Assembly (NCBI GenBank): GCA_049679945.1
Contig: JBAUGW010000063.1
Location: 272 to 64,271, forward strand
Direction: 5' to 3'
DNA length: 64,000 nucleotides
Origin: Pyrinomonadaceae bacterium
GTDB taxonomy: Bacteria > Acidobacteriota > Blastocatellia > Pyrinomonadales > Pyrinomonadaceae
The notes below the pieces were generated by a model. That model had not been told where the DNA came from, did not search any database, and was given only the letters and a program-made list of their open reading frames with translations. The translations under genes and the position numbers were made by a program. Each line of letters opens with the position of its first letter. Within the stretch, counting starts at the first letter, position 1. Of the stretch, positions 3,790 to 56,522 are shown one piece after another.

Positions 3790-5346
3790 ATGTGGAAATT
3801 CATTCATTTCTTACAAAATAATGGACAAGATCTGCTCGTGTTGACCCGCGAGCACATCTTTCTCGTTCTCGTATCGACCAGCGCCGCGATCCTGATCGGC
3901 GTGCCGCTTGGCGTTTTGCTGACACGTATCAAATCATTGCGCACGCCGGTGCTCGGCTTTGCAAATGTAATGCAAACGGTGCCGAGCCTTGCGCTCTTTG
4001 GCCTGCTGATACCGATTCCGTTTATCGGCGGCATCGGCGCCCGAACGGCCATCATCGCGCTCGCGCTTTATGCCCTGCTGCCCGTCATTCGCAACACGGT
4101 CACAGGAATCTTGGGCATTGACCCAAAACTGATCGAGGCGGCGGATGCGCTTGGCATGACCGGTTTGCAGCGTTTGAAGATGGTCGAATTGCCGCTTGCG
4201 ATGCCCGTAATTCTGACAGGCATTAGAGTTGCGGTCGTGATATCGGTCGGCGTTGCCACAGTGGCAGCGGCGGTTGGCGCGGGCGGTCTCGGTACATATA
4301 TCTTTCGCGGGCTTCGGCAAAACGACAACAACTTGCTAATTGCAGGAGCTCTTGCCGCTGCAATTTTGGCGCTGCTGTGCGATTTCGCGCTCGGACAATT
4401 TGAAAAATCTTACAAGATCGGTCAGAAAGCCTTCGCCGGACGTCGAAAAATGCTTGCAGCATTTGTCATAGCAGTATTCGCGGGCGTGATTGGTTTTAGT
4501 TACCTGCCCAGCAACAAAACGCCTGACTCAGATCGAGCAGTTGTAGGACCAAATGCGAAAACGATAATCGTAGGTTCAAAAGATTTCACCGAGTCGGTGA
4601 TTCTCGCTGAGATACTCTCGCAGATGCTCGAAAAGCGAGGCGTGGCGGTAACGCGACAATTCGAGCTTGGCGGCAATCTCGCGCACGAGAGTTTGCTGTC
4701 GCGGGCAGTCGACGTTTACCCTGAATATACGGGCACGGCCTTCACCGCGATTCTCAAACACGCGCCCGTGACCGATCCGAAACAAGTTTATGAACAGACA
4801 AAAGCCGAGTATTCAGACCGATTTAATCTCTCGGTCAGTCCTCCGGTTGGCTTTTCAAACGATTTTGCGATTCTCGTTCGCGGCGATGTGGCCCGCAAAA
4901 ATAATCTAAAGACGATCTCCGAAGCGGTCCAGTTTGCAAAAGACTGGCAAGCCGGATTTGGCCAGGATTTTATGTCGCGGGCCGATGGTTACACAGGGTT
5001 TGTAAGGGCGTACGGCCTTAGTTTTGCCAAAAACCCGCGTGAGATGGACCTCTCGCTGACATACCGTGCCTTGCAATCCGGCGAGCTCGACATCATCGCC
5101 GGCAACTCGACCGATGGTCTTATCAGCGCTCTCGATCTGTTCCAATTAGAGGATGACCGGCGCTACTTTCCGCCGTATCAGGCCGTCTTTATTGCCCGAA
5201 ATGGGATCGCAGCGGATCTTGCAGAGGTCTTTGCAGCTCTCAACAACGCGATCTCAACCGACGAGATGCGACGGCTGAACTACGAGGTTGACGGCAACAA
5301 ACGAACCCCGAAAGAAGTCGCGGCAGACTGGGTTGCGAATAATTAG
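3790..5346 (+). CDS. osmoprotectant ABC transporter, fused permease / substrate-binding protein
   Basis: 518 aa. The N-terminal ~210 aa form a multi-TM permease with a binding-protein-dependent transport signature. The C-terminal ~290 aa form a periplasmic glycine-betaine/choline-binding type domain (VGSKDFTESVILAEI...YPEYTGT). Confidence 0.9.
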   Translation: MWKFIHFLQNNGQDLLVLTREHIFLVLVSTSAAILIGVPLGVLLTRIKSLRTPVLGFANVMQTVPSLALFGLLIPIPFIGGIGARTAIIALALYALLPVIRNTVTGILGIDPKLIEAADALGMTGLQRLKMVELPLAMPVILTGIRVAVVISVGVATVAAAVGAGGLGTYIFRGLRQNDNNLLIAGALAAAILALLCDFALGQFEKSYKIGQKAFAGRRKMLAAFVIAVFAGVIGFSYLPSNKTPDSDRAVVGPNAKTIIVGSKDFTESVILAEILSQMLEKRGVAVTRQFELGGNLAHESLLSRAVDVYPEYTGTAFTAILKHAPVTDPKQVYEQTKAEYSDRFNLSVSPPVGFSNDFAILVRGDVARKNNLKTISEAVQFAKDWQAGFGQDFMSRADGYTGFVRAYGLSFAKNPREMDLSLTYRALQSGELDIIAGNSTDGLISALDLFQLEDDRRYFPPYQAVFIARNGIAADLAEVFAALNNAISTDEMRRLNYEVDGNKRTPKEVAADWVANN

Positions 5347-9915: not shown

Positions 9916-10373
9916 GTTCCAAGTTGCAAGTTCCAAGTTCCAAGGCATGGGTTTATGGCGAGATTTGAACGATTTGAAGAGATAGAAGGGTGGAAACTGG
10001 CGCGGCAAGTGACGAACCAAGTGTACGAGCTCAGTTCTGCTCCTGAATTCAGCCGAGATTTTGCGCTCGTAAATCAAATGCGCCGTGCATCAGTTTCAAT
10101 TATGTCGAATATTGCCGAAGGTTTCGAACGAGATGGCAACAAAGAATTTCTTCAATTTCTTTCGATAGCAAAGGGTTCGTGCGGAGAAGTGCGTTCCCAG
10201 CTATACGTTGCACTCGACAGAAAATACTTAGACGATAGACGATTTCATTCGGTCAGCTCGTTATTGATCGAAACATCAAAAGTGCTCTCAGGTCTAATGA
10301 AATATCTGAAACAGTCTGAAGAACGAGGGCGAAAATTCAAATAACTTGAAACATGGAACTTGAAACCTGGAAC
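9916..10373 (+). mobile_element. hairpin-bounded cassette carrying a four-helix-bundle gene
   Basis: Inverted heptamer-repeat arms at 9916-9945 and 10345-10373 (25/29 complementary by hand). They bracket the CDS at 9955-10344 and fill the MFP-RND gap exactly. Confidence 0.55.
9955..10344 (+). CDS. four helix bundle protein (23S rRNA intervening-sequence protein family)
   Basis: 129 aa. WKLARQVTNQVYEL...QMRRASVSIMSNIAEGFERDGNKEFLQFLSIAKGSCGEVRSQLYVA matches the family consensus as I recall it. Confidence 0.9.
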   Translation: MARFERFEEIEGWKLARQVTNQVYELSSAPEFSRDFALVNQMRRASVSIMSNIAEGFERDGNKEFLQFLSIAKGSCGEVRSQLYVALDRKYLDDRRFHSVSSLLIETSKVLSGLMKYLKQSEERGRKFK

Positions 10374-19214: not shown

Positions 19215-19286
19215 CCACAGATGAACACGGATAAACTCAGATCAAGTTATTGATCTTATCTGTTTCCATCTGTGTTTATCTGTGGC
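19214..19286. repeat. CACAGAT-class hairpin between convergent genes
   Basis: GCCACAGATGAACACGGATAA ... TTATCTGT..CATCTGTGTTTATCTGTGGC. Likely a bidirectional terminator. Confidence 0.7.
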
Positions 19287-19294
19287 AAATATTC

Positions 19295-19780
19295 TTAGAT
19301 TAGCGGTCGGCTCGTGAAAACCCAATACAAAATAAACCCGCTCGCAATGATCGAACTGATGAGCAGCAAGACCAGCAGCCCGATCAACCCAAATACAAAA
19401 ATGTAATCACTCGTCTTGCCTTTGCCGTGGCCCGCGGCGCGTGTGCGGATGAGGTTCATGTTCTGTTTGTTGGCCTTCCAGACAAAATCGAACGCGTCGC
19501 CGACGAATGGCACCATTCCGACTACGTAATCGAGCCCGATATTAAACGCCATTCGTAGCAGCGTGATCTTTGGCACGCCGTAGCGAACGCCTGCGAACAA
19601 AATATAAAACGACGCGAATGACGTAAGCGTGTCGCCTACATTCGGCACGAGCCCGATCAGCGAATCAAGCCCAAACCGCCATCCCGTGCCCGGAATGCGA
19701 AACAGTCCGTCGAGATAATGCGACAGATCTTCAAGGCCTTCTTCGATCTCGATCTGACGTTTAGTTTGAATTTCCTTCAT
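19295..19780 (-). CDS. DUF4112 domain membrane protein
   Basis: FRIPGTGWRFGLDSLIGLVPNVGD...VPFVGDAFDFVWKANKQN matches the family motif from memory. Confidence 0.8.
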   Translation of the reverse strand: MKEIQTKRQIEIEEGLEDLSHYLDGLFRIPGTGWRFGLDSLIGLVPNVGDTLTSFASFYILFAGVRYGVPKITLLRMAFNIGLDYVVGMVPFVGDAFDFVWKANKQNMNLIRTRAAGHGKGKTSDYIFVFGLIGLLVLLLISSIIASGFILYWVFTSRPLI

Positions 19781-19787
19781 AAGAACT

Positions 19788-20195
19788 CGCCACAGAGAAC
19801 ACAGAGGTCACAGAGAAATGCGCTTAACTCCTTCGCGGAGCATCTTTGCGCCAAAGTTGATTAAGAGCCCACGTTTAAGACCGGTTGCTTTTAGATAAGA
19901 CAGAATCTGGGCGGTTGAGACGTCGGGGAGTTTACTGAGTGATTTGATCTCAACTATCACTTCTTCTTCAACGAGTATATCGATCCGCTGGCCTTTAATA
20001 ACTTTGTCTTTGTAAATGACATCTATCTCAAGCTGTCTCGAATAACGAATACCTCGCAAATCGAATTCATGACAAAGAGCTTCTTCATAAATCGACTCGA
20101 GCAAACCCGGACCGAGTGTTCAGTGAACTTCGATAGCTGCACCAATGATCTTCTGCGTAAGTACATCGTTTTCCTTCTCTGAGTTCTCTGTGGCG
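19788..20195 (-). mobile_element. hairpin-bounded cassette carrying a GxxExxY-family gene remnant
   Basis: Arms are CGCCACAGAGAACACAGAGGTCACAGAG (19788-19815) and CTCTGAGTTCTCTGTGGCG (20177-20195). 18/19 complementary over the shared part. Confidence 0.55.
19808..20173 (-). pseudogene. GxxExxY protein (PD-(D/E)XK-like) with in-frame TGA
   Basis: The track ORF starts at an internal TTG (LESIYEEALCHEF...). Reading upstream in the same frame gives ENDVLTQKIIGAAIEVH-TGA(20120-20122)-TLGPG, which is the family N-terminus. No in-frame ATG was found. Confidence 0.7.
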
Positions 20196-24986: not shown

Positions 24987-25793
24987 GTGGCCATTTCTTT
25001 CAAAACACTTCCTGAGAAGTTCGAACAGTACCGCGACCGCAAATGGCGGCGTGATGATTCTTTGAAGATCGATTCCGCCGAAGAAGTCGAGGCCATGGTC
25101 GAGGAATTGGGTTTTTGTCTCGGCTTAACGGATGCGCGCAAAATGATGCCTTCGGTTTACATTGCCGTCTGCGGTCGCCGCGACGCGCACATGCCGCGAA
25201 ATGTGCAGAAAGATTTCGAGGCGAGCCGCGCGTGGGTTTTGAAGGACGAGGTTATTGCACGCGGAAAAGTTTATTACGCAAAACTGGTAAAAGGACATTC
25301 GATGTTCCTCGCCCCGCGAATGATCCCTGTCTTCAATACCATCTGGGGCGTGCCGAAAACCCGCGAGGCAAAAGACCTTTCAGGCAGCGCCAACAAGATA
25401 CTAAAAGTGCTGCGCAAAGAATGGGAAATGGGCTCGGCCGACCTTCGCGCCGCGGCGCAGATCACGACCCGGCCGCGATTCACAAAAGCGATGGACAAAC
25501 TGCAGAAGACGATGAAGGTCCTGCCGCAGGAAGTTCTATACTCGCCCAAGTTCACATACATCTGGACGCTCGCCGAAGCGCGTTTTCCTGAAGAGCTAAA
25601 AATAAAAATGAAACGCGAGACGGCCGTTCGCGAACTCGCACGAACATACTTGCAAATGTGCGGAATGACGCTGCTAGGCGATCTTTCGCGCACATTCGGT
25701 TTCTATCGTTGGGAATCTGGTAAGGCAAATCACGAGCTTGTGGATGAAGGTTTTGCGGAGCGTCTGACAACCGGTGTTTATAAGTTAAGATAA
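24987..25793 (+). CDS. hypothetical protein (possibly winged-helix-like)
   Basis: 268-aa ORF with a GTG start that lies inside the CACAGAT-class repeat. No confident motif. Repeat arms on both sides. Confidence 0.55.
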   Translation: MAISFKTLPEKFEQYRDRKWRRDDSLKIDSAEEVEAMVEELGFCLGLTDARKMMPSVYIAVCGRRDAHMPRNVQKDFEASRAWVLKDEVIARGKVYYAKLVKGHSMFLAPRMIPVFNTIWGVPKTREAKDLSGSANKILKVLRKEWEMGSADLRAAAQITTRPRFTKAMDKLQKTMKVLPQEVLYSPKFTYIWTLAEARFPEELKIKMKRETAVRELARTYLQMCGMTLLGDLSRTFGFYRWESGKANHELVDEGFAERLTTGVYKLR

Positions 25794-25795
25794 CT

Positions 25796-25874
25796 CACCA
25801 CAGAGCCACAGAGAGTGCAGAGACCACTGAAAAAAACAAAGCAATTCTTCGATGTTCTCTGTGGGCTCGGTGGC
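25796..25874. repeat. CACAGAG-class hairpin between convergent genes
   Basis: CACCACAGAGCCACAGAG ... CTCTGTGGGCTCGGTG. The right end overlaps the stop codon of the M20 peptidase gene. Confidence 0.65.
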
Positions 25875-27418
25875 TAATTCTTCATTGTCATTAGACTCGC
25901 AAAAATCTCAATGCCGTCCCAGAGATTCTGCAAACGAATGTTCTCGTTTTCTGCGTGCTGGTTGTTGTCGTAGTTTGCGATGGGAACGGTGATCGTCGGC
26001 TGGTTTAGCACCTCGACGACGATGGACAATGGAAGGCTGCCGCCTAGCGTAGGCATTCGGACGATCGGGTCGGTTGACGTTGCCTGCACTGCGTCGATGA
26101 CGGCCAGCGAGATGGGAAGGTCCATTCTTGTTCGCTGCGCGTTGTAGCCGCCGGATCGCGCGGTGAGTTTTGCAATGAAGGGATGCTTGAGACGCTCGGC
26201 GGCGGTCGGTTCATGGTCAATAATATGAAAACCTTGCGACTCGATGTGCCGTCTTAGTTTCTCGACCTGTCGCACGTGGTCGTTGCCTTTGACGAGCCGC
26301 AGATCGAGCACAGCGCTCGCCGATGACGGGATCACATTTCGTGCCAATTCTCCGACGTCGCCGCTTTTGAATCCGTTGATATTTAGCGACGGTTGGTTGA
26401 TCAGATCGAGAAGACTTTTTCCGCCGCCTTCCGTGTAAGCGATCCCAAGCTGCCGTTTTATCTCTTCGTCATACTGCGGCGCATCCTTGATCGCCTGAAG
26501 CTCCACGGCCCCAAGCGGTTCGACATCGTCCGCCCAACCTTTGACAGTGATATTGCCGCGGTCGTCCTTCATCGACGACAATAGCCGGGCAAGCGTCAGG
26601 GCCGGGTTAGGCGACCAATTGCCGTAATGCCCGCTGTGCAGCGGCCGGTTTGCCCCGTAAACGGTGAGATCGACATTCACGTCACCCCGAACGCCAAAGA
26701 CAACTTGCTTCCGCCACGACTGATGCACCGGCCCGTCGCAGACGATAAATGCATCGGCTTTGAGCAGGTCTTTGTGCTTTGTGAGTATCTCTCTCAGGTT
26801 CGGCGAACCCGCTTCTTCTTCGCCCTCGAAAAAGAATTTGATATTGACCGTTGGCTTGATGCCTTTGGCGATCAGCGCGTCGAACGCGGTGAGGATCGCA
26901 AACACTCCGGCCTTATCGTCCGACGTCGAGCGTCCGTAAAGCCGCCATTCCGGGTCGATCTTTTCACCCGCTGCCGGAAAAGGAATCATCTTCCCGCCAT
27001 TCTCCAGCGACGCGCTACGCAAAACCGGCACCCACGGCTCGCTTCCCGTCCAATCTGCCGCATTTGTCGGCTGGCCATCATAATGAGCGTAAAAGATGAC
27101 CGTCTTCGTTGCACCCGGCGTTATCCATTCACCATAAACCACGGGCGGAACTTTGTTGTCTTGTGCTTCAAGTAGCCGCGGGTTCAAACCGCGCCGTTTC
27201 ATAAATCCGACAAGATAATCGGCATTTCGCTTGATGCTCGGAGTATCGGCGGCAACATTCGGGATGGCGAGGATCTCAACAAACTCGCTTAGGAGTTGGT
27301 GCTCGTTGGCGGTGCGGTATTCGCGAACGAGTTTTGAAACGGTGTTTTGACTAGAACAAACCGGCGAAAGAAGAAGAACCAAAACCAGAATAAGCGAGGA
27401 TCGGCGAAACAGGTGCAT
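25874..27418 (-). CDS. M20 family metallopeptidase (dipeptidase-like), secreted
   Basis: The start at ATG 27418 gives a signal peptide MHLFRRSSLILVLVLLLSPVCS. Also has the YGRSTSDDKAG metal-binding motif. The longer track ORF overlaps the upstream gene. Confidence 0.9.
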   Translation of the reverse strand: MHLFRRSSLILVLVLLLSPVCSSQNTVSKLVREYRTANEHQLLSEFVEILAIPNVAADTPSIKRNADYLVGFMKRRGLNPRLLEAQDNKVPPVVYGEWITPGATKTVIFYAHYDGQPTNAADWTGSEPWVPVLRSASLENGGKMIPFPAAGEKIDPEWRLYGRSTSDDKAGVFAILTAFDALIAKGIKPTVNIKFFFEGEEEAGSPNLREILTKHKDLLKADAFIVCDGPVHQSWRKQVVFGVRGDVNVDLTVYGANRPLHSGHYGNWSPNPALTLARLLSSMKDDRGNITVKGWADDVEPLGAVELQAIKDAPQYDEEIKRQLGIAYTEGGGKSLLDLINQPSLNINGFKSGDVGELARNVIPSSASAVLDLRLVKGNDHVRQVEKLRRHIESQGFHIIDHEPTAAERLKHPFIAKLTARSGGYNAQRTRMDLPISLAVIDAVQATSTDPIVRMPTLGGSLPLSIVVEVLNQPTITVPIANYDNNQHAENENIRLQNLWDGIEIFASLMTMKN

Positions 27419-53816: not shown

Positions 53817-53879
53817 GCCACGAATGAACACGAATAGCACGAATAAGATCAAATCGTGTTATTCGTGTCCATCCGTGGC
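53817..53879. repeat. CACGAAT-class hairpin between convergent genes
   Basis: GCCACGAATGAACACGAATAGCA against the reverse complement of TGTTATTCGTGTCCATCCGTGGC is about 20/23. Likely a bidirectional terminator. Confidence 0.75.
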
Positions 53880-55075
53880 TAATTCCTCTTCTTTCTTAAT
53901 GTAACCAGTATCGCATCGCCCACCTTTCTCTCGCCTTCTTTGTCTGACGGACGATTGACCACTTTGCCGTCGAGAAACATCGTCGTCGAGCCGCCGCCGT
54001 CGAGATTCATCGCGTCCATCGCACCAAGCTCGAGCATGTATTTTGCGAGATCGTAAAGATCAAGCCCCGCACTCTGCTCCGTACGTCCATCGACCGTTAT
54101 CATCAGAAATTTGCCGTCTTTCAACTTCGCCACCGCCGTGCGCGGATGCCGCGTCTCGACAAACGACTTCGACGCCTTTTCCTGCTCCCAGGTAATATCG
54201 ATCTTGCCGTTTTTGATAAGCTGCGGAACGCCAGCAACAATATCTTCTGCTTCAGGAAAGAAACTGTTCTTTGGGGCCGGAAGCGGTCCGATACCGATAA
54301 CAACTCTTAGATCGACCCTCTCCTTCACGTGGTAAAGGATATTATTGGACTTTTCTAGAGCGTTCTTCCCAATCGAGATAACATAGCCACCTGTCGGAAT
54401 TACCGAATTTCCTTTGCCATTGGAAATCTCAGCCTTAAAGCACCTTTTCTGCATTCCGTTATTCGCGCAATCTCTGAGAATCAATTCCGTTCCGCTATCG
54501 TCGGTCAGTGTAGTGCGGTTGAAATCGGGCGTGTATAGAATAATCTCATCAATTTTCCGCTCACGATTCACACCCGCAAACCAGAATTCAGTATCGACGC
54601 CAAACCCGACGACGCTAATGGAATGGAGGTGTCCAAACTTTGCTTCTGTCTTGTCCTTTTCGTTTGCGATAGCGAGTGCGACTCGATTGTTGGTGCTTTC
54701 GCTCAATAACTTGTGATCAATCATCAAGACACCTGCCGCATCGCCTGCCCAGATACTGTTGTCGAGTCTGAAAAACCCCGCATTTATCGCCGCGAATGCA
54801 CTGTGGCGCGTGGCGATGGACGAGGTTTTTTCCGTGCCGATGGCCATGTCCATTGCGTGGTGGACGTCGAGACGGACTTTTTTTAGATCGAGGCGGAGAA
54901 GGTTGATATTGACGGGCTTACCGCTGAATTCACGCGCTACTCGCGCATACTCAACGCCGTCGGCGACGGCTTTCCACTCCTGAGCGAAGATATTCACCAC
55001 AGAGGCACAGAGAACACAGAGGGTAAAAATCAGGCGGGTTGGTCGAACTGACGGTTTATTTAAATAGAATTTCAT
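53879..55075 (-). CDS. phosphodiester glycosidase (NAGPA/DUF2233) family protein, secreted
   Basis: The start at ATG 55075 gives a signal peptide MKFYLNKPSVRPTRLIFTLCVLCASVVNIFA. C-terminal NLDGGGSTTM motif. Confidence 0.8.
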   Translation of the reverse strand: MKFYLNKPSVRPTRLIFTLCVLCASVVNIFAQEWKAVADGVEYARVAREFSGKPVNINLLRLDLKKVRLDVHHAMDMAIGTEKTSSIATRHSAFAAINAGFFRLDNSIWAGDAAGVLMIDHKLLSESTNNRVALAIANEKDKTEAKFGHLHSISVVGFGVDTEFWFAGVNRERKIDEIILYTPDFNRTTLTDDSGTELILRDCANNGMQKRCFKAEISNGKGNSVIPTGGYVISIGKNALEKSNNILYHVKERVDLRVVIGIGPLPAPKNSFFPEAEDIVAGVPQLIKNGKIDITWEQEKASKSFVETRHPRTAVAKLKDGKFLMITVDGRTEQSAGLDLYDLAKYMLELGAMDAMNLDGGGSTTMFLDGKVVNRPSDKEGERKVGDAILVTLRKKRN

Positions 55076-55120
55076 GTTTCTTTTGGCTTTCTCCGTGATC
55101 TCTGTGCCTCTGTGGTGAAT
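54992..55120. repeat. CACAGAG-class hairpin enclosing the start codon of the glycosidase gene
   Basis: Perfect 21-bp arms ATTCACCACAGAGGCACAGAG (54992-55012) and CTCTGTGCCTCTGTGGTGAAT (55100-55120), with partial extension. The loop contains the ATG at 55073-55075. Confidence 0.85.
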
Positions 55121-55142
55121 TCCTTTTATAATAACTAAGAAA

Positions 55143-56522
55143 ATGCGGATCAACGAAAGAGTCGTCGCTCTCAATGACAAGCCGGTGAATCAACGTGCGC
55201 GCTACGTGCTCTATTGGATGCAGATGTTCAAGCGCGTCGACAACAACCACGCGCTCGTTTGGGCGATACGCAAGGCGAATGAACTCAAGCTGCCGCTCGT
55301 CGTTTACGAAGGTTTGAAATATTACTACCCGTGGGCTAGCGATCGCATTCACACATTCATACTCGAAGGCGTCGAAGAAAAACAGCGTGAGTTCGCTTCG
55401 CGAGGCATCCGATATCTCTTTTATTTACAGAAAGATAAGTCGTCACCCCAAAATACCGTTGCAACGCTCGCACGCGACGCGGCGTTGATCGTCACCGATG
55501 ACTTTCCGTGCTTTATCATTCCCGAACACAATCGCCGCATCGCCGAGAGAGCAGAGATCGCGGTTTACGCAGTCGATTCGAACGGCGTGATTCCGATGTC
55601 GAAATTCGACAAAGAAAATTACGCCGCATACGCGATCCGTCCGAAGATCAATAAGCTGCTCGATCATTATCTGGTGCCGGTCGACAACGAAACACTGGAA
55701 TGTTCCAGCATCGGCATCGATCTCGATTGCGACTTCGAAACTATCGTGACTTCCGAAACTATCACGAAACTTGTCGCCGAGTGCGACATCGATCACACGG
55801 TTGTGCCGTCACAGATCTATCACGGCGGCACAACGAACGGACGTGCGCGTTTGAAAAAATTCGTCGATGAAGTTTTGGGGGATTACGACAAGGCGCGCAG
55901 CAAGCCGGACCGCGACGGCTCGTCACGGCTATCCTCTTACTTACATTTTGGTTTTTTGTCGCCGCTTGAGATCGCGCTTGCCGTGCGCAACGCGGATGCT
56001 CCGCAAGAGTCAAAGGCCGCCTATCTCGAAGAGTTGATCGTCCGCCGCGAGCTGTCGTACAACATGACGCACTTCAATGCGAATTACGATTCGCTTACGG
56101 CTTTGCCTGATTGGGTGCACAAAACCATGCGCGAGCACGCCGGCGACGAACGCCAGTATCTCTATTCATTGGAACAATTAGAGGCTGCCGAAACGCACGA
56201 CGAGCTTTGGAACGCCGCGCAACGTGAGATGGTTCAAACCGGCGAGATGCACAATTATGTTCGGATGCTGTGGGGCAAAAACGTGATCGCGTGGTCGCCG
56301 AGTTACGAGGTTGCTTTTGAGACCTTAGTGCATCTCAACAATAAATACTGTCTCGACGGCCGCAATCCGAATAGCTACGCCGGCATCTTGTGGTGCTTTG
56401 GCAAACACGATCGTCCGTGGTTCGAGCGGCCCGTTTTCGGCAAGATCCGCTATATGGCGAGCCATAGCACGGGTAAAAAGTTCAATTCGAAAAAATATAT
56501 TGCGTGGACAAAGTCGCTTTAA
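55143..56522 (+). CDS. deoxyribodipyrimidine photolyase, class II
   Basis: 459 aa. The N-terminal YVLYWMQ...NHAL and C-terminal FAD-binding region (RMLWGK...W...KHDRPW) are typical of class II CPD photolyases. Confidence 0.9.
   Translation: MRINERVVALNDKPVNQRARYVLYWMQMFKRVDNNHALVWAIRKANELKLPLVVYEGLKYYYPWASDRIHTFILEGVEEKQREFASRGIRYLFYLQKDKSSPQNTVATLARDAALIVTDDFPCFIIPEHNRRIAERAEIAVYAVDSNGVIPMSKFDKENYAAYAIRPKINKLLDHYLVPVDNETLECSSIGIDLDCDFETIVTSETITKLVAECDIDHTVVPSQIYHGGTTNGRARLKKFVDEVLGDYDKARSKPDRDGSSRLSSYLHFGFLSPLEIALAVRNADAPQESKAAYLEELIVRRELSYNMTHFNANYDSLTALPDWVHKTMREHAGDERQYLYSLEQLEAAETHDELWNAAQREMVQTGEMHNYVRMLWGKNVIAWSPSYEVAFETLVHLNNKYCLDGRNPNSYAGILWCFGKHDRPWFERPVFGKIRYMASHSTGKKFNSKKYIAWTKSL

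Follow-up and report, generated by a model that had tools for sequence, protein, structure and literature searches.

A heptamer-repeat hairpin probably domesticated as the signal-peptide core of a NAGPA-family gene in Pyrinomonadaceae

We analyzed a stretch of 64,000 nucleotides (nt), hereafter called the window, from a Pyrinomonadaceae genome (G000; 100 contigs, 3.64 Mb, 52% G+C), in which it occupies C63:272-64271, and focused on a hairpin-forming repeat at the start of a gene of the NAGPA (PF09992) phosphodiester glycosidase family. Coordinates without a contig label are those of the window; contigs of this genome, other genomes and orthologous loci carry C, G and L numbers. All genomes compared are metagenome-assembled genomes (MAGs). 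The features of the locus are as follows.

53879-55075, minus strand: NAGPA (PF09992) phosphodiester glycosidase gene of 398 codons, in the open reading frame (ORF) 53879-55180; Pfam E = 1.8e-37, 129.6 bits against a cut-off of 25
54983-55075, minus strand: region coding for the predicted signal peptide, codons 1-31, MKFYLNKPSVRPTRLIFTLCVLCASVVNIFA, with predicted cleavage after A31 and before QEW
54987-55021, minus strand: 3' arm of the hairpin, CTCTGTGTTCTCTGTGCCTCTGTGGTGAATATCTT, translated as codons 19-30, the predicted hydrophobic region (h-region); perfect core at 54992-55012
55022-55090, minus strand: loop of 69 nt, with an A-rich leader, the start codon and codons 2-18 (n-region, KFYLNKPSVRPTRLIFT)
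55073-55075, minus strand: ATG start codon of the NAGPA-family gene, in the loop, 15 nt (A-rich) after the 5' arm
55091-55125, minus strand: 5' arm of the hairpin, AAGGAATTCACCACAGAGGCACAGAGATCACGGAG in mRNA sense, untranslated; core at 55100-55120; conserved with compensatory changes in orthologues
55127-55132, plus strand: TATAAT hexamer, a possible -10 box, abutting the 5' arm and 10 nt before the photolyase ATG
55143-56522, plus strand: divergent photolyase-like gene (PF00875, E = 9e-10), with its ATG 22 nt beyond the 5' arm

The sequences ATTCACCACAGAGGCACAGAG (54992-55012) and CTCTGTGCCTCTGTGGTGAAT (55100-55120) are exact reverse complements over 21 nt, and shuffled windows gave no such match. 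A repeat finder extended the arms to 35 nt each (54987-55021 and 55091-55125), with 89% complementarity and a separation of 69 nt. When the minus-strand RNA of 54975-55140 was folded, it reached -61.4 kcal/mol, compared with -30.9 +/- 3.8 for shuffled sequences (z = -8.0; none of 200 as good), and a stem of about 33 bp was predicted at the gene start. Along the mRNA, the 5' arm is followed by the 15-nt A-rich stretch, the ATG, codons 2-18 and the 3' arm. The 5' arm consists of three purine-rich heptamers, CACAGAG, CACAGAG and CACGGAG, and the 3' arm is read in the frame CTC TGT GTT CTC TGT GCC TCT GTG GTG AAT ATC TT. as LCVLCASVVNI(F). An assembly artefact was rejected as the source of this locus because dozens of independent MAGs share the same arrangement.

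The encoded N-terminus carries four K/R residues within its first 14 positions (K2, K7, R11 and R14), followed by a 13-residue hydrophobic stretch, LIFTLCVLCASVV, and by I-F-A at positions -3 to -1 and then Q. These features, and the junction A/Q-[DE]-[WFY] (the slash marks the predicted cleavage site), are conserved across orthologues as read from their sequences, and we predict that codons 1-31 encode a Sec-type cleavable signal peptide. Interpreting the Cys residues as a lipoprotein feature was discarded, as no [LVI][ASTVI][GAS]C lipobox is present. A first-pass annotation of this DNA had described the perfect inverted repeats, their partial extension, the ATG in the loop, a second arm coding for the hydrophobic core of a signal peptide and a protein of the phosphodiester-glycosidase family, and all of these hold; the ATG occupies an equivalent place in orthologues. 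Three details needed correction. The coding arm had been placed at about codons 17-27, whereas the extended arm covers codons 19-30 and the perfect core codons 22-28; the photolyase start had been placed 23 nt beyond the arm, one more than the actual gap; and a Shine-Dalgarno sequence had been assigned to the loop, whereas the only letters of that kind (GGAG in CACGGAG) belong to the stem, at its inner end, and the loop before the ATG is simply A-rich.

The same annotation had proposed that a repeat element was recruited into the coding sequence (CDS), and the genome bears this out. The focal arms match, in register, at least 17 other inverted pairs of CACAGAG/CGCAGAG type, whose arms comprise about three tandem CACAGAG/CGCAGAG heptamers at a spacing of 8-9 nt, with the termini TTCACC...GGTGAA. 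The genome holds 38 near-copies of the 21-nt arm and 166 heptamer dimers, compared with 19 for a control pattern. In every family member the 5' arm is the purine-rich one and the 3' arm the pyrimidine-rich one, and because the element is palindromic this polarity is the same on both strands. That the arm was recruited as the h-region of the signal peptide is, in our view, very probable.

We further examined the orthologues of the gene. Among the 24 same-genus genomes, 19 carry it, at 48-65% identity, and together with the window's own copy these make up a set of 20 loci. In their start regions, both arms, an ATG just past the 5' arm and the A/Q-[DE] junction lie in register, and the ATG is enclosed by a 22-33 bp stem in 14-16 of the 20. 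A wider sample comprised 66 loci, one per GTDB species, all from Pyrinomonadaceae or unclassified Acidobacteriota MAGs, in which the signal peptides read ...LCVLCASVVN..AQD[FWY] and variants of it. The LCxLC signature is present in at least 46 of 60 orthologues, and the N-termini of 56 species combine a K/R-rich n-region, an LCxLC h-region and A/Q-[DE]-[WFY]. Each of these 56 species has an open frame that begins with an ATG 0-15 nt past the 5' arm, or 50-60 nt past it where a second palindrome has been inserted; the distance is mostly 0-3 nt, and 8-15 nt in some loci, including the window. The loop varies from 49 to 105 nt among orthologues and its sequence is variable and not alignable, while its frame is always open.

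To score the presence of both arms, 150 nt upstream of the ATG was compared with the signal-peptide codons, and the same leader paired with downstream gene segments provided 168 controls. At least 36 of 56 loci have kept both arms, with complementarity above the highest control value. Two further two-arm loci (L041 and L059) were scored out because the ATG had been picked upstream of the arm, and in about ten more loci the LCxLC coding arm is kept and the 5' arm has been lost.

Two other palindromes were observed in these leaders. A small, self-palindromic, GC-rich sequence, CAGAACCGCCTGCGTnAGCGGGCGGCCAGT, lies between the 5' arm and the ATG or replaces the arm (L009/L070, L051, L069 and L058), and represents a second, REP-like repeat family in the leaders of NAGPA orthologues. 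In G006 (L016/L091), the heptamer 5' arm is gone. In its place, a perfect GC-rich pair of 31-32 bp, GTCAGAACCGCCTGCGTCAGCGGGCGGCCAGT, surrounds the start codon, and the 3' copy of this pair falls within the signal-peptide codons (RTGRPLTQAVLT).

In four other families of the class, the orthologues carry ordinary signal peptides unrelated to the repeat. The first-pass annotation would have been refuted by repeat-free orthologues with the same signal-peptide sequence, and the comparison of N-termini that it had called for showed otherwise: the signal peptides of G008, G003 and the four orthologues from outside the family are unrelated. We constructed a tree of 60 orthologues rooted with the four out-of-family sequences, in which two-arm copies occur in every major clade, including the earliest branches; the arm states were called crudely and automatically, with four loci (L061, L071, L043 and L078) wrongly scored as having none. 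Because out-of-family orthologues have unrelated signal peptides and two-arm copies are found in all major clades, the repeat-coded signal peptide is, as far as the sequences tell, derived and old. The simplest history would be a single origin in the ancestor of the sampled Pyrinomonadaceae, followed by at least 10 losses or decays of the 5' arm.

The untranslated arm also follows the coding arm in its changes. We built mini-hairpins from 14 same-genus orthologues, with the loop swapped for GAAA, and found that 94.4% of cells were paired and that 9 of the 22 pairs had changed on both sides, a result reached by none of 500 shuffles; slid registers paired at only 29-58%. A second comparison covered 31 species, picked by heptamers on each side separately and not by complementarity, in which the leader fits the arm of its own gene better than the arms of other species (local-alignment scores 33.9 and 26.1, permutation p <= 5e-5). 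Local-alignment scores were used because a between-species matrix of duplex energies was uninformative for arm matching, since heptamer arms all pair with one another once the register is shifted; an RNAduplex run on 57 loci was likewise dropped for its over-extended duplexes. Even synonymous sites take part: the third base of the Cys codons agrees with the leader base in 70 cases (TGT:A 54, TGC:G 16) and is mismatched in 5 (Fisher 1.6e-11), and TGC:G is found in four or more separate clades.

One genome, G016, is particularly informative about where the match arises. The repeat family is nearly absent from it (5 dimers), and its NAGPA locus has a CACATAG/CTATG variant on both arms; the pattern ACATAG..ACATAG occurs exactly once in the genome, at this locus. 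Since the motif is unique to the locus, the arm match is local and was not copied from other family members, and ectopic conversion from such copies was thus ruled out for G016. In loci chosen for having arms, the conservation of the untranslated arm is 0.67, compared with 0.71 for the coding windows and 0.54-0.56 for the arm flanks. These comparisons show that the arms co-evolve locally, either by selection on an RNA stem or by DNA-level correction between them; the untranslated arm tracks the coding arm, so the stem seems to be more than a relic. We consider it quite likely that the pairing is under real constraint.

To place the locus among its relatives, we searched the genome for hairpins in general and found 318 with arms of at least 20 nt, many of them built from other tandem heptamers (CACGAAT, CGCAAAA, CACAGAT and AAGTGAA). 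By crude gene calls, 204 of the 318 are intergenic, and their contexts are as follows.

Between co-directional genes: 139 of 318
Between convergent genes: 43 of 318
Between divergent genes: 15 of 318
Intergenic with one flanking gene missing: 7 of 318
Overlapping the end of a CDS: 68 of 318
Within a CDS: 46 of 318

Long hairpins are thus three times rarer between divergent than between convergent genes. They closely adjoin stop codons, and the usual distance from the end of an untranslated copy to a start codon is 10-20 nt. A Shine-Dalgarno role for the arm-terminal GGTGA was considered and dismissed, as its spacing to the ATG (9-23 nt) rules against it.

Some copies carry genes of their own. 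Within the window, one heptamer cassette of each of two kinds was found.

19788-20195, minus strand: PF13366 gene (PD-(D/E)XK, GxxExxY-like; E = 3e-31) within CACAGAG arms
9916-10373: PF05635 gene (E = 1e-34) within the arms of another heptamer type

In the PF13366 cassette, an ATG lies 8 nt past the 5' arm and the 3' arm, read as TCT CTG TGA, provides the stop codon; an in-frame TGA also lies 14 codons past that ATG, ahead of a long ORF started by TTG. The focal copy encloses no PF13366 or PF05635 ORF, and the NAGPA-family gene uses the frame next to that of the cassette, CTC TGT G.., which is open, as is the third frame of the arm. The ORF-bearing copies seen carry PF13366 or PF05635 and no transposase. 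The family shares terminal inverted repeats with miniature inverted-repeat transposable elements; by eye, no direct repeat indicating target-site duplication was found at the flanks of the 17 pairs. Rfam has no such family, and its search returned only spurious, below-threshold matches to plant miRNA precursors caused by the long stem.

Three further observations concern these repeats. At 25790-25880 of the window, a further, degenerate hairpin of CACAGAG type (ACTCACCACAGAGCCACAGAGAGTGCAGAG ... GTTCTCTGTGGGCTCGGTGGCTAA) is situated between genes, and a heptamer hairpin runs in frame within a membrane glycosyltransferase-like gene at C99:~4100-4200 (...GKSIATGVTEKSKAVFSVFSVSSEAVSFANW...). Contig C6 (21.3 kb) consists entirely of a perfect palindrome whose arms measure 10.6 kb. 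It almost certainly arose as an error of assembly, and all of its features are doubled, such as a cassette at 1573-2049 and 19258-19734.

The NAGPA-family gene is not the only one with a repeat-coded signal peptide. About nine further genes for secreted proteins or lipoproteins in this genome have a signal peptide wholly or partly coded by a hairpin arm, with several heptamer types represented.

C9:22009-22121, minus strand: hairpin-coded signal peptide
C4:12309-12435, plus strand: hairpin-coded signal peptide
C91:48083-48192: hairpin-coded signal peptide of a 658-aa BNR/Ycf48-like protein
C19:39470-39598, minus strand: hairpin-coded signal peptide
C44:18774-18859, minus strand: hairpin-coded signal peptide
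C52:9832-9943, plus strand: hairpin-coded signal peptide
C82:33530-33700 (33606), plus strand: hairpin-coded signal peptide
C50:51590, minus strand: signal peptide coded by a solo arm
C47:~93850, plus strand: signal peptide coded by a solo arm

Apart from the C91 case, the arm codes for the h-region and sometimes the n-region, each time followed by an A/Q-type junction, and one of these proteins has a lipobox (LSSC). In C91, the start codon lies in the loop of a CGCAAAA-type hairpin whose 3' arm provides the h-region TFASFALFCGY. Its orthologues in 16 species (L112-L127) have other heptamer types at the same place (CGCAGAG, CACAGAT, CGCGAAA, CAGGAT and GAGAAGAG), and the type differs even in the closest relative (L112), at 96% identity of the mature protein. 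On comparison of these sequences, the C91 signal peptide appears to have been repeatedly rebuilt from different repeats. A similar turnover was seen in the gap between the R3H/Jag-like gene and mnmE (C70:41137-41214; L025-L039), where most syntenic species have a heptamer hairpin of varying type (CACAGAG, CAGGATA, AAGTGAA or CAGTAGA) and both arms change together. Against this background the NAGPA locus stands out, in that one heptamer type has been kept over the whole clade.

Overall, we favor the interpretation that a heptamer hairpin was domesticated as the core of a signal peptide, that its two arms co-evolve, and that the stem over the start codon affects expression; we regard this combination as likely, with the recruitment of the arm as its firmest part. 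In this scenario, a hairpin element would have arrived at the 5' end of a NAGPA-family gene in the ancestor of the clade and displaced an older signal peptide. Its loop would have provided or acquired the start codon; a donated start is plausible because in an ORF-bearing copy an ATG follows the arm by 8 nt and the adjacent frame runs through the 3' arm without a stop. The pyrimidine-rich 3' arm, with T at second codon positions, would yield a Leu/Cys/Val h-region in the frame CTC-TGT-G.., and the A/Q cleavage site would lie in the flank after the arm. In the mRNA, a stem of about 33 bp, ending 0-3 nt before the ATG in most relatives, would enclose the start codon and lower or time expression.

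How the stem would act can be suggested more tentatively. Given a transcribed leader, the stem, at about -60 kcal/mol, would close next to the ATG, and ribosomes may load only while it is open, that is, on the nascent transcript before the 3' arm has been made or while a ribosome sits on that arm. The closed stem would form a double-stranded substrate for RNase III, whose gene is present in the genome. Reasoned from the predicted fold, such gating with RNase III decay is possible, though we hold it with less than even confidence. A broader version, in which heptamer hairpins in general would be portable modules of start codon plus signal peptide, with the stem as a co-transcriptional gate and RNase III clearing closed molecules, is an unlikely generalization at present. 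It would rest on the purine-rich arm, an A-rich loop with a possible ATG of its own and a pyrimidine-rich arm open in two of three frames, a polarity whose read-through could yield a charged n-region followed by a hydrophobic h-region.

Several results weigh against a role of the stem in expression. The 5' arm has been lost or has decayed at least 10 times while the gene was retained, so the stem is dispensable. A stem selected as RNA would tolerate G.U more than A.C mismatches on the sense strand; the ratio is a suggestive 15 to 7 in 14 loci, 48:44 in 34 loci, and 87:86 in the 139 co-directional intergenic hairpins of the genome, and this symmetry does not support selection on RNA rather than DNA. 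The Fisher and shuffle tests of arm pairing ignore phylogeny, and a promoter and terminator scan of the element gave no match, so the 5' arm is only putatively transcribed. Accordingly, the strongest alternative accepts the recruitment of the arm and denies the stem a function: arm-to-arm templated repair or replication template switching is supposed to maintain or renew complementarity, with any effect on expression being neutral or mildly harmful. The mismatch symmetry fits this alternative well, as does the survival of the coding arm where the 5' arm has gone, and so does the tendency of the hairpins to lie at gene 3' ends or between cistrons, with fewer between divergent than convergent genes. 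The wholesale swapping of heptamer type in both arms at other sites, even between close relatives, further suggests that the hairpins are actively generated or replaced rather than selected site by site. What stands against it is that the untranslated arm nearly matches coding sequence in conservation and exceeds its flanks, and that the arm persists in G016, a genome nearly devoid of the family. We therefore consider a functionless stem somewhat unlikely.

The remaining alternatives concern the reading frame or the DNA itself. Translation might begin at or after the arm, which contains two in-frame GTG codons (55001-54996), the only in-frame starts there before Met75; the hairpin would then be a 5'-untranslated region (UTR) element of a cytoplasmic protein, in keeping with most family copies, which are untranslated and end 10-20 nt before start codons. 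A start at these codons would leave the protein without an export signal, which outgroup orthologues possess, the next candidates at and beyond Met75 would cut into conserved orthologue sequence, and 56 species keep an open, signal-peptide-like frame from the upstream ATG. These open frames, together with export in the outgroups, indicate that the start is not downstream of the arm, so that the other condition under which the first-pass annotation would have been refuted does not apply either, and the downstream start is highly improbable. It is equally hard to credit a slipped-strand switch, in which gain or loss of a heptamer in the coding arm would shift the frame and toggle the secreted enzyme. 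The arms are indeed tandem short repeats and the number of LCx units ranges from 1 to 4 between species, but the focal arm has only three imperfect units at 8- and 9-nt spacing, all differences between species are in frame, and no frameshifted allele occurs in 60 loci. Finally, the arms could form a DNA site, such as a protein-binding inverted repeat or a cruciform, that controls two divergent promoters, an idea suggested by the TATAAT abutting the 5' arm. The arm pair nevertheless stays with the NAGPA-family gene under a different upstream neighbor (G022, G012, G017 and G013), the arm spacing is variable (69-105 bp) and one arm is coding, which leaves this explanation very unlikely. Domestication of the hairpin as a signal-peptide core with co-evolving arms remains the reading that we prefer.

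As for the upstream neighborhood, the photolyase-like gene is the neighbor in about 11 of the 20 same-genus loci, and the arm is kept where the neighbor differs. The complement of the TATAAT hexamer is a conserved TATTATA just upstream of the 5' arm, which is kept only in loci with the photolyase neighbor. The position of the hexamer, 10 nt from the photolyase ATG, suggests a nearly leaderless photolyase mRNA. The first eight codons of the photolyase (ATGCGGATCAACGAAAGAGTCGTC), which with the hexamer fall within 55127-55165, are almost invariant in DNA across the genus and may double as a promoter of the divergent gene. A minus-strand promoter read by hand, TTGATC-17-TATAAA, fails the scan criteria and is left as a lead.

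Parts of this arrangement have precedents. Rickettsia palindromic elements (RPE), the pneumococcal BOX, RUP and SPRITE elements and the betaproteobacterial BRE have been described as in-frame fusions with genes, some of them at the 5' end (Delihas 2011; PMC3184786). The family described here resembles them in being multi-copy, hairpin-forming, non-autonomous and mostly intergenic, with some copies translated as internal, 3' or 5' protein extensions; as with RPE, a copy of a dispersed palindromic repeat is translated within a host protein with the frame kept. Unlike RPE, BOX and BRE, however, the NAGPA arm supplies a defined module, the h-region of a predicted cleavable signal peptide; its start codon lies in the loop, its arms are tandem heptamers rather than unique sequence, and its untranslated arm co-evolves with the coding arm over a whole bacterial family. 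Signal peptides are not mentioned in that review (PMC3184786).

Heptamer hairpins in leaders are also known. In Haemophilus influenzae hmw1A/hmw2A, a hairpin of heptanucleotide repeats in the 5'-UTR is cut by RNase III and controls expression (PMC12721329). Both systems have tandem 7-nt repeats as an arm of a long 5' hairpin at an exported-protein gene; RNase III targeting is shown for hmw only. The hmw hairpin lies wholly in the UTR, its repeats pair with a G-rich region, its unit number varies (phase variation) and its cleavage raises expression, whereas the NAGPA stem encloses the start codon and has one coding arm, so that a cut would separate the start codon from the rest of the gene. RNase III also excises the stems of intervening sequences in 23S rRNA. 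ORF-carrying intervening sequences of this kind, stem-bounded and encoding the PF05635 'S23p' protein, are known, among them the Coxiella element (PMC4990558). The PF05635 and PF13366 genes of the present genome similarly sit in stem-bounded cassettes, while the focal copy differs in lacking its own ORF, lying outside rRNA and being translated within its host gene.

Direct TAACTGA heptamer repeats occur in intergenic regions of Beggiatoaceae, Cyanobacteria and Bacteroidetes, with a proposed post-transcriptional role (MacGregor 2015; PMC4679880). Like the repeats studied here, they are tandem heptamers within a few nt upstream of the starts of many unrelated genes; they are direct and scarcely ever have a partner in inverted orientation (one indirect repeat in 170 repeat sets), and signal-peptide coding is not reported for them. 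REP/BIME and the Correia elements of Neisseria are abundant intergenic palindromes that are co-transcribed and affect mRNA stability, and Correia stems are cut by RNase III. The REP unit is defined as an imperfect palindrome of 20-40 nt that bears a GTAG or CGTC tag and is associated with a RAYT gene (PMC3733652). The arms of the present family are instead direct arrays of heptamers; they are not palindromic and lack such a tag; unlike in Correia-type elements, no TA duplication or IHF site was seen. In the delayed folding of the MS2 maturation gene and the fold-back of hok mRNA, translation is limited to nascent or unfolded RNA, because long-range pairing shuts the start region. The likeness to the mechanism proposed for the NAGPA-family gene is one of analogy only. 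In the literature that we searched, we found no description of a signal peptide whose core is a repeat arm, and none of a leader that co-evolves with a coding segment as its partner arm in an element of this kind. In-frame palindromic repeats, heptamers before start codons and stem-bounded PF05635 cassettes are thus known, and the arm as a signal-peptide core is apparently new.

Repeat DNA, whether selfish or structural, would here have become a functional protein segment, and the outgroups still show the ancestral state. A leader and a coding segment that evolve as a pair down to synonymous sites are unusual, and easily missed by annotation and by codon-based selection tests. Signal peptides may be a preferred and tolerant landing place for hairpins, and thereby a route of export-signal turnover. 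If the stem does gate translation or RNase III decay, it would represent a previously undescribed layer of control over secreted enzymes in a major soil phylum. If the module view were also true, Pyrinomonadaceae would have repeatedly rebuilt their export signals from hairpins and coupled the synthesis of secreted proteins to ongoing transcription.

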